This document shows positions 8,423 through 33,250 of a stretch of DNA of 39,237 bases, piece by piece. The stretch spans positions 22,534-61,770 of the forward strand of contig JALTLO010000076.1 of NCBI GenBank assembly GCA_027001995.1. The letters run 5' to 3'. This DNA comes from Planctomycetota bacterium (lineage in GTDB: Bacteria > Planctomycetota > GCA-002687715 > DRQF01). Positions within the stretch are counted from its first letter, which is position 1; every line of letters starts with the position of its first letter. A program made the translations under genes and the position numbers. Under the pieces are notes generated by a model. That model was given only the letters and a program-made list of their open reading frames with translations, was not told the DNA's origin and did no database searches.

Positions 8423-9733
8423 TCACCGTTTCATTTTCTTCTTCCAATCGGGGAAAAGATCGTTGAGATCGAATTTGAGAGACTTGAGGCGCTCAGCCCC
8501 TTCCACATAGCGCTGAAAGTGGCTCACCCGGGTGTCAATAAGCTGAATGCCCTTCTGTCGGGCCCATGATGCTGGGGAATCGAGGATTTCCACCAAGTTG
8601 CAGCCGACAAAAAGATGATTACCTCTTCCGCCAGCCCCGATTGAAATATGGCTCATGCGACAATCTTCGAATCGGCTCACCAACCCTTCGCTCCGCACGT
8701 CAATCAAATTGCCGGAACCAACTATGGCTCGGCTATATCCCCCTTCAATCCGGCAATGGCGAAAGTAGAGAAAACTCTGGTTAGCACTCACCATGCAGGA
8801 GCCCCCAGCCCCCATGTCAAAGCCAACCACTCGAACAAATTCCGCTTCCATGGTGACAACACCACGTCTTTGATCGAAAAGATAATTGTTGTTGCAATGA
8901 ATCGTGCAGTTCTTCACATGCAAGCGCTCAATATGCCCACCTGGACTCAAGTCTGAGTTGAGTACCAGAAGGGTTTGATCCATCCCTGCACCCCGAATCG
9001 TGAGGTCCCTAAGCCCACTCCTCTTCATGCGCAACACTCGTTGAAGAGCCCCTAAGTCAAACACCCCAGGCCCAAACTCCAAAGTTGCTCCATCCGTCAA
9101 AGACTCGGCCATTTTTCTTTTGTCGGAATTGAGTTGAATGAGTTTTTCGGGGTTCTTCGACAAGAAGAATTTCTCAACCTGTTCCTTGTCTTCGAGTAAA
9201 CTCATAGGTGGAGCTGTGCTGGACTTGTCGGCAGCCTCCAAGAGATCGACGCCATTCCCCTCGCGAATAGCTCTATTCCATTTCTCCACGTCATTCTGTT
9301 CTTGTGCAAGAGCTTCACCGATGGTTAAAGGTATTCTCAAGACTGTGTCTTTAAACCGCTTAAGTCCAGCGGTCAACTTGTCTCGGGAGATCTCCTCTTG
9401 CCGGGATTTGCTCCAGCCGTCTTTAATTCCCTGAATCGCATGGTCCATGAGAGCCTGGGAGAAAAGAACACCTGCATCCGTCCTTTCCTGGCCTCTGGGG
9501 GAGGTAGACCCCTCAGAGCCGTTTTCTCGAAGCAATGGGGCCCGGCGCCTGGGGATGACAGCATCACGAATGGCCGGAGATCTTTTCGAAGCGCCTCCAG
9601 ATTCCAAATCATCAACGTCAGGCTCGAACTCTGATCTGAGAATCAGCCCACCCAAGATCATCCCCGCAACAAAAATAGTCGCGCCAACTGCTAACATCGG
9701 CATGAAAGGTCGTGACAAGATTCTTCTCTCCAT
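8423..9733 (-). CDS. Membrane-anchored protein with a pectin-lyase-like right-handed beta-helix domain
   Basis: N-terminal TM helix. LEFGPGVFDL...DLTIRGAGMDQTLL is a typical beta-helix entry, followed by repeated xFxxCxI turns. Confidence 0.65.
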   Translation of the reverse strand: MERRILSRPFMPMLAVGATIFVAGMILGGLILRSEFEPDVDDLESGGASKRSPAIRDAVIPRRRAPLLRENGSEGSTSPRGQERTDAGVLFSQALMDHAIQGIKDGWSKSRQEEISRDKLTAGLKRFKDTVLRIPLTIGEALAQEQNDVEKWNRAIREGNGVDLLEAADKSSTAPPMSLLEDKEQVEKFFLSKNPEKLIQLNSDKRKMAESLTDGATLEFGPGVFDLGALQRVLRMKRSGLRDLTIRGAGMDQTLLVLNSDLSPGGHIERLHVKNCTIHCNNNYLFDQRRGVVTMEAEFVRVVGFDMGAGGSCMVSANQSFLYFRHCRIEGGYSRAIVGSGNLIDVRSEGLVSRFEDCRMSHISIGAGGRGNHLFVGCNLVEILDSPASWARQKGIQLIDTRVSHFQRYVEGAERLKSLKFDLNDLFPDWKKKMKR

Positions 9734-18840: not shown

Positions 18841-19920
18841 CTAACGCCCCACGTTCAAGCATTGGCGAGGGTGCCTGGAAAACCCCACGCGTCCATCTTT
18901 GGCATTGACCACAACAAAAGTAGAAGTGCCTGATGCTGAAGGCGAGAATTCCACTCGGTAGTGCCCTAAGTTCGTTTTCGTCACACGAATAGGTTTCAAT
19001 TCTGAAAAGTTCGCTTCACGGCTCAAGAATGCCAAGGCTCGTTGAGAAGCGACACTCTTGTTCTTAATCGATACGAGTTCTGGCTCGCTCACCCTTGAGT
19101 TGCCCTCAAGCCATTCCTGGGTCCCAGGCTCACCTGAATAAATCCTCTCCACCAACCATTCCAGAGACGCACTCAGTTCTTTGCCAATCTCCCACTCCCC
19201 CTCCTTTCTAAAGCTAAGACGAACGCAACGGCCATCCACCCCCGCTAGGATTGCGCCTTCTCCCAGTTCTATGGCCATCGTCGCTTTGTTTACAATGAAT
19301 AGATCACTGAGCTCAGTTCCACTGGCCATCGGTACATGGTTCAAAGTTGTCCCTCCGCCTCCCCCTAAACTTCCAGCCTTCACCTCAACGGTACAGAGAT
19401 CAGCAAATTCGCCTGCAATCTTCTTCAGGCTCACGGAAATGCGCCCGACGTAGTTCCCTGTTCTTGGAGCAGGATTCACAGCCCTGTCAGGAGCAACCCC
19501 CACAGACATACCCGGCCCAACCATCAGATGAATTGGAGTTGCTGAAGTGACAAACCATGTCCAAGAAATCGATTCATTGCTGCTTTCGTTTAAGACCGGT
19601 GCATGGACGCGAAGACTCTCACGGGTAGGGAGCCCACCAAGAAGTCCGGGACAAATAAACGTAGAAGTCTGCGGGAAAGAAGTTCTTTGTTTCTCGATAT
19701 AGGCCATTATCTCAGCAGAGCCTACGTTCTGGGGCTCGACAGAAGACCTTTCTGGTTCAGGAGCCGAGCCCGAGTGAGGATTCTCGGGATGGGCGCGACC
19801 GCAAAGTTCGCAAACCCTGGCATCCTGCGTTGCTGCGGCCCCTGGTACTTCTTCACCATTGTACCCGCCACAAGACATCAACAATAGGAACGTTGTTGCC
19901 AAAACAAGAACCATTCGCAT
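18841..19920 (-). CDS. Hypothetical lipoprotein
   Basis: MRMVLVLATTFLLLMSC lipobox, SD AGAGGTG, 359-aa ORF, CELCGRAH motif near the N-terminus. Confidence 0.7.
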   Translation of the reverse strand: MRMVLVLATTFLLLMSCGGYNGEEVPGAAATQDARVCELCGRAHPENPHSGSAPEPERSSVEPQNVGSAEIMAYIEKQRTSFPQTSTFICPGLLGGLPTRESLRVHAPVLNESSNESISWTWFVTSATPIHLMVGPGMSVGVAPDRAVNPAPRTGNYVGRISVSLKKIAGEFADLCTVEVKAGSLGGGGGTTLNHVPMASGTELSDLFIVNKATMAIELGEGAILAGVDGRCVRLSFRKEGEWEIGKELSASLEWLVERIYSGEPGTQEWLEGNSRVSEPELVSIKNKSVASQRALAFLSREANFSELKPIRVTKTNLGHYRVEFSPSASGTSTFVVVNAKDGRVGFSRHPRQCLNVGR

Positions 19921-26190: not shown

Positions 26191-28377
26191 CTATCGCTTC
26201 ACGTTCAAAGCCCTGGCACGATGAAGTTTCCGGTAACTTTCAATGAGTTTCGCGTGTTTTTCCAAGCCTTCGAGTTTCATGCTTGTAGGAGCTAGCCCTG
26301 AAAACCGAACTTCCCCGGAGACAGAACCCAAGACTTCCTTCATGGTTTCACTGCCAAACATCCTGGTGAAATTTCCAACATAATGTTCAAGATCCAATTG
26401 ATCATCGACGGTGATTTCCAAAACTGCGCTGAGGGCCTGGTAAAAAAGGTTCCGTTCAGTGCTATTGTCGTTGAAGGCTAAAAAGTTGGCGACCATGAAC
26501 TTGGCTTCTTCGTATTCCTTCAGGGCAAGGAAGATAAGAATCTTGAGTTCACCAATATCGAGTTGGCCCCAAACGGTGTTCTCATCGAATGCCACACCAA
26601 TAAGCCCAGAGATCCTGGTGTAGTTGTCCAGCTGGCTTTCTTCGAGTTTTTCAACCAAGGAACGAAGTTGCTCATCGCTCAAAGAGTGAAGGTTCAAAAT
26701 GTCTTGGCGAAATCCAAGGGCTCTATTGGTGTTATCCCAGATTAGATCTTCGGGAGAATAAATCTCCGAATATCCCGGAACAAGAATGCGACATGCATGT
26801 CCGCCGAAGTCCTCATAGACAGCGACGTAGACTTCTTTGCCCATGGCTTTGAGAATGTCCATGAGATAGGCAGTCTCCTCTTCAGTACTACCTGAGAAGT
26901 CCCACTCGCAAAAATCAAAGTCACTCTGGTCGCTGAAGAACTTCCAAGACACCACGCCAGTTGAATCAATGAAGTGTTCAACGAAGTTGTTTGGCTCGGT
27001 GACCGCCAAGCTATTGAAAGTTGGTTGAGGAACATCATTGAGGCCCTCGAAACTCCTGCCCTGCAATAACTCCGTCAAACTGCGTTCAAGAGCCACTTCA
27101 AATTTCGGATGGGCTCCGAAAGAAGCAAATACACCACCCGTCCTCGGGTTCATCAGAGTGACGCACATCACAGGAAACTTGCCACCCATCGAGGCATCCT
27201 TGACCAAAATAGGAAAACCCTTGGCCTCTAGTTCTTCAATACCTGCAAGGATGCTTGGAAACTTTTCTAAGACGGACTTCGGCACATCGGGCAAGGCCAA
27301 TTCTTCCTCAAGAATCTGTTTCTTGACACCCCGTTCGAATATTTCTGACAGGCATTGCACTTGCGCTTCGTGAACGGTGTTACCCGCACTCATGCCGTTG
27401 CTCACAAAGAGGTTTCCGATCAAGTTCGCAGGAAAGTAAACGGTCTGTTTGTCTGATTGACGCTCGAAAGGAAGACCGCAGATGCCCCTATCACTTCGCC
27501 CGGAGTTGGTGTCAACCAGATGAGATCCTCGCAATTCCTGATTTGGGTTGTAGACACCGAGACAAGTTTCGTCCAAGAGGCCATCAGGCAACCGATCGTC
27601 TTCGCCAATTGGAAACCACTTCTCATCGGGGTAGTGAACAAACTCGCTGTTTGCTATTTCCTCCCCTAAGAAGTGGTCATTGTAGAAATAGTTACAAGCG
27701 CTGCGTTCGATGTATTCACCAAGGGCAGAGCAAAGCGCGCTATCTTTGCACGCCCCTTTGCCATTCGTGAAGCACATAGGAGAAGAGGCATCACGGATAT
27801 GCACAGACCAAACGTTGGGCACAATATTTCGCCAGGAAGCGACTTCGATGGTGATTCCAAGATCTGCCAAGATCGCAGTCATGTTCTTAATGGTTTCTTC
27901 CAACGGCAAATCCTTGCCCAAGATCAGAGTCTCTGTGTCAGGGGCAGTATGGCTGGCGTACATGAGACTCGAATCTTGACCCAATGACTCAACGGCCTCG
28001 ATCTCGAAACTCGGGCCGGTCTGAATCACCTTCTTGACGGTGCAGCGGTCAATAGACTTGATGATCCCTTCGCGGTCTCGCTGGGAAATGCTCTCAGGCA
28101 GCTCGGCATGAATCTTGAATATCTGATTGTACCTATTCTCAGGATCGATGATGTTGTGCTGCGAGATGCGAATATCTTCGGTGGGGATATCTCGAGCGAT
28201 GCAATAAATCCGAACGAAATAGGCCGCACAAAGTGCCGAGGAGGCTAAGAAATAGTCAAAAGGGTTGGGGGCTGAGCCATCGCCTTTGTAGCGGATCGGT
28301 TGATCGGTGACGACGGTGAAGTCATCAAACGTCGCTTCTTGTCTGAGATTATCCAAGAAACGTACTTTGATTTCCAT
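26191..28377 (-). CDS. OsmC domain / YcaO domain fusion protein
   Basis: N-terminal OsmC domain (DQP...GDGSAPNPFDYFLASSALC...DRCTVKK). YcaO ATP-binding motifs: TNGKG, SALGEYIER, SNGMSAGNT...SEIFER, ERSLTELLQGR. Confidence 0.95.
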   Translation of the reverse strand: MEIKVRFLDNLRQEATFDDFTVVTDQPIRYKGDGSAPNPFDYFLASSALCAAYFVRIYCIARDIPTEDIRISQHNIIDPENRYNQIFKIHAELPESISQRDREGIIKSIDRCTVKKVIQTGPSFEIEAVESLGQDSSLMYASHTAPDTETLILGKDLPLEETIKNMTAILADLGITIEVASWRNIVPNVWSVHIRDASSPMCFTNGKGACKDSALCSALGEYIERSACNYFYNDHFLGEEIANSEFVHYPDEKWFPIGEDDRLPDGLLDETCLGVYNPNQELRGSHLVDTNSGRSDRGICGLPFERQSDKQTVYFPANLIGNLFVSNGMSAGNTVHEAQVQCLSEIFERGVKKQILEEELALPDVPKSVLEKFPSILAGIEELEAKGFPILVKDASMGGKFPVMCVTLMNPRTGGVFASFGAHPKFEVALERSLTELLQGRSFEGLNDVPQPTFNSLAVTEPNNFVEHFIDSTGVVSWKFFSDQSDFDFCEWDFSGSTEEETAYLMDILKAMGKEVYVAVYEDFGGHACRILVPGYSEIYSPEDLIWDNTNRALGFRQDILNLHSLSDEQLRSLVEKLEESQLDNYTRISGLIGVAFDENTVWGQLDIGELKILIFLALKEYEEAKFMVANFLAFNDNSTERNLFYQALSAVLEITVDDQLDLEHYVGNFTRMFGSETMKEVLGSVSGEVRFSGLAPTSMKLEGLEKHAKLIESYRKLHRARALNVKR

Positions 28378-32572: not shown

Positions 32573-33250
32573 CTAACCCAGACTACGTTGGAGAATACGC
32601 CCGCGGAGTAATTGACTCCGAACTCGCAACAACTCTTCAAAGTTCGGCACATGAACATGCAGGGGGATCTTGACCAATCGTTCATCTCGTTGGCCAAAGG
32701 GCGGAGCTGGACTCACGGAGAAGAGCTCAGGCCAGCTACGCAAAGGGCAACTATAAAATATACGATCGGCAGGACCTGACGCCCCCCACCATTCATGGAC
32801 CTTCTCATTGATGTCGACTAAGTGCTGCTGGGCATTGCGCAAGCGCAACCGCGATCCGTATCGTGACTTCCCCTTGGTCTTGGCATAAAGAGTTTGGGAA
32901 CGACCTCGACCACGGACGACGTAGGTCTTGATCACTTTGTGATGGATGACATCTTCACCGCACCACCACCCAAGCGCTGCTGCCCCTGCCTGAATCAGTA
33001 CCATGAGTTGGTCGCCCAAAACATCATCCAGCTGAGCGACGTATTTGAGAGGGTCCTGAGTCTCACTCGTCAGTGGAAAACAGGGAGGAGCATGAAACTC
33101 GAGAGCCGGGCGGCCTCCGACGTCATCTGAAGAAACAAAGTAATTGCCATTCGGACTTGCAACCATGTGACGCTGAGCAATCAGGGCGCCTAAACGAGCG
33201 GCGCAATCTTGCCAAAGAAAACTCTCTTGGTGTACGGAGTCCTCGTTCAT
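32573..33250 (-). CDS. Vms1/ANKZF1-like release factor (bVLRF1 family), putative ribosome-rescue factor
   Basis: LIQAGAAALG...HHKVIKTYVVRGRGRSQ...KTKGKSRYGSRLRLRN...IPLHVHVPNFEEL parallels the VLRF1 pattern HKxxxxYxxRxxQGxxQ...SxGSxLRxxN...RxPT. Candidate catalytic Gln119. Confidence 0.8.
   Translation of the reverse strand: MNEDSVHQESFLWQDCAARLGALIAQRHMVASPNGNYFVSSDDVGGRPALEFHAPPCFPLTSETQDPLKYVAQLDDVLGDQLMVLIQAGAAALGWWCGEDVIHHKVIKTYVVRGRGRSQTLYAKTKGKSRYGSRLRLRNAQQHLVDINEKVHEWWGASGPADRIFYSCPLRSWPELFSVSPAPPFGQRDERLVKIPLHVHVPNFEELLRVRSQLLRGRILQRSLG

Follow-up and report, generated by a model that had tools for sequence, protein, structure and literature searches.

A stand-alone bVLRF1 gene with a shortened predicted catalytic loop in a planctomycete genome

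Bacterial VLRF1 proteins (bVLRF1, or bVLRF-1), the proposed source of eukaryotic Vms1, were described by Burroughs & Aravind 2019 (PMC6514570) as stand-alone proteins with a GxuQ motif, found mainly in Bacteroidetes. Their member list (about 96 entries by hand count) includes one planctomycete protein (PIE24939.1, 222 amino acids, aa), as well as entries from green algae, a Heimdallarchaeon, Lentisphaera and Pseudobacteriovorax. According to passages of two later papers (PMC11317155 and PMC9757039, 2022-2024), bacteria have no known dedicated factor for freeing chains from 50S-peptidyl-tRNA; these passages leave room for a non-GGQ factor, and one of them allows for cutting of the CCA end. We describe here a stand-alone bVLRF1 gene at 32573..33250 on the minus strand (225 aa, ATG to TAG) of a 39,237 nt stretch of Planctomycetota DNA (the window), which belongs to a branch of the family with a shortened loop. 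The gene is a genuine bVLRF1 and adds a further entry to a family already catalogued; its value lies in being a test case for this question, not in its discovery as such.

Family membership and predicted fold

The open reading frame (ORF) at 32573..33250 (minus strand) contains HKVIKTYVVRGRGRSQ, GKSRYGSRLRLRN and IPLHVHVPNF, all of which had been quoted in a first-pass annotation that assigned it to the Vms1/ANKZF1-type bVLRF1 family. This assignment is borne out by a match to the Pfam bVLRF1 family (PF18826, E 6.9e-24, 84.9 bits versus a cut-off of 27), covering residues 82-219 and positions 2-142 of the 145 in the profile. A total of 315 relatives of similar length were retrieved at E<=0.001 (among 659 candidates), and with such a score and such a number of relatives, membership of the family is not a matter of chance. 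No second Pfam family was detected in the protein at E<=0.01, in agreement with its proposed stand-alone nature, and there was no match to acVLRF1 (PF18859) at E<=0.01 or to any NCBIfam model. The gene is present as a single copy in the genome (92% complete). A search of genome contigs with the single protein as query returned one locus. Its GC content of 53.5% is typical of the genome (51.7%), and recent horizontal arrival is not indicated. Comparison with a relative that is 71% identical (L002) gave a proportion of synonymous differences of 0.76, at which synonymous sites are saturated, versus a non-synonymous proportion of 0.16, which indicates purifying selection. A scan for promoters and terminators at the gene gave results at chance level, and no RNA record with the sequence was listed, which carries no information on its expression. 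Among named relatives the closest, at 71% identity, is labelled Planctomycetota, which is also the commonest phylum in the top ESM Atlas cluster, making the planctomycete host that had been suspected from the DNA very likely. Occurrence outside Bacteroidota, implied to be new in the first-pass annotation, is not so, since the published list already includes PIE24939.1 and other members from outside that phylum.

The protein is predicted to fold as an N-terminal extension (residues 1-80, 33011..33250, minus strand) followed by a VLRF1/eRF1-middle-domain core of the RNase H fold (residues 82-219, 32594..33007, minus strand), the latter being supported by PF18826 and by Foldseek and VIA matches to Vms1 and a/eRF1. 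Strands were modelled in the extension at residues 5-12, 29-31, 38-40 and 50-53, with a helix at 13-26, and its start lies within the span aligned to the N-terminal core segment of Vms1. The model superposes on both Vms1 and a/eRF1, consistent with the eRF1-middle-domain fold anticipated earlier; the VIA alignment pairs model residues 8-222 with Vms1 13-397, and with a/eRF1 the middle domain alone aligns (model 77-216). Searches of the PDB with the single sequence gave no significant match, and a profile was required. Following the core strands, a long helix was modelled at residues 126-158, the start of which (G127-K-S-R-Y-G-S-R-L-R-L-R-N139, 32834..32872, minus strand) contains the invariant arginines R130, R134 and R136, with the Tyr of GKSRYGS being present in 109/115 sequences of the short-loop branch. 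These arginines are predicted to contact large-subunit rRNA, a role taken from a passage of PMC6514570.

The protein shares with the described bVLRF-1 proteins a Pfam match above the cut-off, the GxuQ motif, the helix arginines, a length of about 225 aa and the combination of an N-terminal beta-strand extension (strands within residues 5-53) with a single Pfam domain and no fused partner. Its fold, N-terminal core segment and four loop residues are in common with Vms1/ANKZF1 (PDB 5WHG, 6R84-6R87), whereas the zinc finger, ankyrin repeats and VIM of these proteins are missing according to Pfam. The acVLRF-1 proteins (PF18859) belong to the same clade and form the next-nearest ESM Atlas clusters; their GGxSQ motif is absent here, where the loop reads GRGRSQ. 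Both the GGQ motif and the three-domain, tRNA-mimicking build of classical a/eRF1 are lacking.

The catalytic loop and the short-loop branch

The predicted catalytic loop, located by alignment and conservation, is Y110-V-V-R113-G114-R-G116-R-S-Q119 (32894..32923, minus strand). Residues Y110, R113, G116 and Q119 correspond to the Vms1 release residues Y285, R288, G292 and Q295 and are invariant in 115/115 sequences, with the conserved Gln at residue 119 as annotated in the first pass. The GxuQ motif is formed by G116-R-S-Q119, and its third position is Ala or Ser in 114/115. The confidence of the structure model is low over residues 111-130 (predicted local distance difference test 55-58). The stretch from Y110 to Q119 has one residue fewer than Y285 to Q295 in Vms1, as the spacer between the Arg and GxuQ has two residues (G-R) rather than three; relative to Vms1 the loop has thus lost one residue ahead of the Gly, and it lacks another following the Gln. 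The first-pass annotation was thus right that the loop is altered, but what it described as the lack of the first Gln is not a substitution: one residue has been deleted and a Gly follows the Arg. The change is also a trait of a whole branch rather than a peculiarity of this gene.

The bVLRF1 loops mostly follow a short (R-G-x-GxuQ) or a long (R-x-x-Q-GxuQ) pattern, with the Bacteroidota bVLRF-1 proteins (Rufibacter, Bernardetia and Microscillaceae; 6/6 named) having R-x-x-Q-GxxQ, in contrast to the R-G-x-GxuQ of the short branch. The three-residue spacer used here to define the long loop is a descriptive trait that we measured, not a published criterion. Searches seeded with short-loop proteins gave 278 sequences (including some redundancy), of which 219 have a two-residue spacer, 54 a three-residue spacer and 5 could not be parsed, one of these having a two-residue spacer without Gly. 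All parsed two-residue spacers begin with Gly (219/219). A search seeded with long-loop proteins gave 108 new proteins with a three-residue spacer in 108/108, and 150/160 long loops have Gln immediately ahead of the Gly. Long-loop bVLRF1 was also observed in records from Calditrichia, Spirochaetota, Myxococcales, Deltaproteobacteria and Oligoflexia, a broader spread than that of the published list.

In a FastTree phylogeny of 271 domains, 212 of the 217 short-loop rows were on one side of a branch. A subsample of 85 rows (45 short, including five outliers, and 40 long) was analysed with IQ-TREE after removal of the loop residues, and although few columns, a quick search and a midpoint root were used, the main short-loop group had a Shimodaira-Hasegawa-like approximate likelihood ratio of 99. 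The five other short loops (YMxRGNG[KR]AQ; P0204, P0207, P0231, P0238 and P0254) were inside the long-loop group, behind starred branches, which implies at least two independent changes of the loop. Judged by these alignments and trees, the short loop is the mark of a supported branch comprising about 200 sequences, and it has arisen at least twice with the same Gly, which suggests that it is tolerated rather than disabling. The six named members of the short branch are from Planctomycetota (4), Acidobacteriota and Riflebacteria. No description of this branch was found in the literature searched, and the strings YVVRG and YMVR occur 0 times in the text of the PMC6514570 supplement, in which alignments may be present as pictures; the branch-wide short loop is a new variant within catalogued bVLRF1. 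An alignment search for longer, fused or eukaryotic relatives gave none among 8000 crowded candidates scored, which is weak evidence, and since it yielded no eukaryotic relatives, the trees contain no eukaryotic rows and do not bear on which of the branches lies nearer Vms1.

The conservation of the loop also bears on whether the protein is catalytic. With an aeRF1 fold, it could be a non-catalytic or weakly catalytic ribosome binder, plugging the A site to block RqcH tailing or to protect idle ribosomes, like the hibernation factor Balon. We regard this as improbable, as Y, R, G and Q are invariant, the alignment with Balon covers one domain only (118-125 residues), and a short loop that arose twice, with R-G and the four residues kept, suits a retained function better than decay.

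Partner genes and a proposed role on the large subunit

The genome carries RqcH, MutS2, ArfB, SmpB/tmRNA, Pth, RNase Z and a CCA-adding enzyme, and thus all of rqcH, arfB and smpB, which the first-pass annotation had marked as worth looking for. Bacterial ribosome-associated quality control (RQC; MutS2, RqcH, RqcP and Pth) and ArfB share the predicted substrate of bVLRF1, 50S-peptidyl-tRNA. RqcH, scored across 301 Planctomycetota genomes by NFACT_N matches over the cut-off, was present in 18 of the 21 genomes with bVLRF1 versus 120 of the 280 others, a comparison that is confounded by kinship. Overall RqcH was over the cut-off in 138/301 genomes; a published table gives rqcH in 7/211 genomes of the Planctomycetes-Verrucomicrobia-Chlamydiae group (PMC11633108), with methods and sampling differing from those used here.

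We lean towards short-loop bVLRF1 being a rescue factor that cuts the CCA end of peptidyl-tRNA on the 50S subunit, unlike Pth and ArfB, which hydrolyse the ester. Splitting, for example by MutS2, would yield 50S-peptidyl-tRNA, and bVLRF1 would enter the empty A site of the split subunit still carrying the peptidyl-tRNA, where its basic helix would bind to 23S rRNA as in Vms1, and the Y110/R113/G116/Q119 loop would reach the acceptor end of the tRNA. By analogy with ANKZF1, cleavage would release the chain and leave a CCA-less tRNA with a 2',3'-cyclic phosphate. This phosphate would be removed by RNase Z (in other genomes, by a CCA enzyme bearing an HD domain), and the CCA-adding enzyme would then restore the end. 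The protein would compete with or end alanine tailing by RqcH, without needing RqcH, and would back up Pth, ArfB and tmRNA.

One distant relative may link cutting to repair directly. P0234 (MBF0301121.1, Oligoflexia bacterium; partial, 395 aa, on a 3.5-kb contig) has a long-loop bVLRF1 domain (residues 88-232, 111 bits) followed in frame by a class II nucleotidyltransferase head (265-391, 69 bits), the best NCBIfam match of which is the multifunctional CCA addition/repair protein of E. coli type (profile positions 1-125 of 409). Whether fused or adjacent, the two parts join a predicted cutter to a CCA repair enzyme, and according to a passage of PMC7026593, CCA repair enzyme acts after ANKZF1 in eukaryotes. 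No paper combining VLRF, CCA-adding enzymes and fusion was found, and the PMC6514570 supplement describes the clade as being without genuine fusions.

The main alternative, although we consider it rather unlikely, is a codon-independent peptidyl-tRNA ester hydrolase and thus a release factor proper, in which Q119 would position water at the peptidyl-transferase centre as in GGQ factors and leave the tRNA intact. The loop has the GxuQ motif, which PMC6514570, in passages favouring ester hydrolysis, argues to be a variant of GGQ, and Vms1 itself was described as a hydrolase (PMC5989216). The extra Gly in 219/219 parsed short loops could restore GGQ-like flexibility, and RNase Z is missing in 13 of the 21 carrier genomes. 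Later work, however, found CCA cleavage by Vms1/ANKZF1, and the family shares with Vms1 an invariant Tyr and Arg upstream of the Gln; furthermore, ArfB and Pth already provide hydrolysis in this genome, and P0234 is joined to the head of a CCA enzyme.

Several further observations weigh against CCA cutting by short-loop bVLRF1. The loop is one residue below that of enzymes with known chemistry, and in the yeast loop deletion of S294, elsewhere in the loop, abolished function. P0234 is the only fusion (1/364 proteins), is partial, lies outside the short-loop branch and may represent two adjacent genes with a lost stop; Pfam was rerun on the 14 longer proteins of a set reaching about 400 aa, in which fusions are under-sampled. 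No paper was found on the activity, ribosome binding or expression of any bacterial member, in keeping with the first-pass remark that no biochemical characterisation of them had come to notice. In B. subtilis, Pth has been reported to carry out the last step of RQC (PMC11633108). Only 21/301 Planctomycetota genomes have bVLRF1, and among these RqcH is missing by two profiles in three and MutS2 in six, which together with those lacking RNase Z rules out strict dependence on any of these. No homologues of cca, pcnB, rnz, rqcH or mutS2 were present in the fetched flanks of 102 bVLRF1 loci. HD-type CCA enzymes are common, and their occurrence is therefore merely compatible with CCA cutting.

A wider proposal, which we advance only tentatively, is that bacterial RQC has in bVLRF1 the dedicated terminator it has so far lacked, a tRNA endonuclease that takes the CCA off 50S-bound peptidyl-tRNA after splitting by MutS2 and tailing by RqcH and is coupled to CCA repair. 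If true, the cut-and-repair cycle of eukaryotic Vms1/ANKZF1 would be a bacterial inheritance, the in-frame bVLRF1-CCA enzyme fusion a Rosetta stone of that cycle, and the short loop would be a way of retuning the cut site that recurs and retains activity. A minimal 225-aa member whose genome also encodes RqcH, MutS2, RNase Z and a CCA enzyme makes the question of nuclease versus hydrolase directly testable, and the natural pair of long and short loops offers a comparison for what sets the position of the cut.

Some features of the partner genes were observed alongside. The MutS2 matches stop at profile position ~690 of 790 in this genome (G000:C8:10287-12365) and in 14 others, so that the C-terminal part, which we take to be the Smr domain, seems to be absent from these proteins. 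In this genome (G000:C177:53187-54446 and C133:41234-42190) the CCA-adding-type enzyme is without an HD motif, while RNase Z, rare in the phylum (51/301), was found in all 18 sampled genomes of the same order; removal of the cyclic phosphate may have been handed over.

Gene neighbourhood

In the window the bVLRF1 gene is flanked on the same strand by genes for a Kup potassium transporter and an S9 peptidase, which are not common to other loci. Nearest neighbours of the 21 genome loci and of 37/80 metagenome loci are mutually unrelated, with the other metagenome loci being a syntenic group or near-duplicates. Recurrent neighbours among the 102 loci were a DUF1080 hydrolase (24), a 640-aa protein (19) and an oxidoreductase (19), as well as glycosyltransferases and an RlmL-like methylase. 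All of them are confined to a single, poorly resolved region of the tree, to which the f46 genomes belong, so a conserved operon was rejected; they represent lineage synteny of genes with unrelated functions. The ~640-aa protein, without a Pfam match, is encoded directly downstream of bVLRF1 in one lineage (L066:4620-6563, L060:2757-4682 and 17 more loci), and has a lipoprotein-like start, with weak TolB-propeller similarity in one member.

These neighbourhoods also bear on the possibility that the active site serves a nuclease of tRNA or other RNA acting independently of the ribosome, or an effector in stress or conflict. The RNase H fold, the patchy presence in the phylum and scattered phosphatase neighbours (3/21 loci) would fit such an activity, which we nevertheless judge very improbable: no antitoxin-like or defence partner was present in the neighbourhoods, searches of viral contigs and of plasmids yielded no copy, the GC content is that of the genome, and family f46 shows vertical synteny.

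Elsewhere in the window, ORFs at 18841-19920 (359 aa) and 8423-9733 (436 aa), both on the minus strand, belong to no Pfam family. The ORF at 26191-28377 (minus strand) encodes an OsmC-YcaO fusion protein, matching TIGR03549 at 1347 bits and also above the cut-off of the model for the YcaO accessory protein of the S12 methylthiotransferase.
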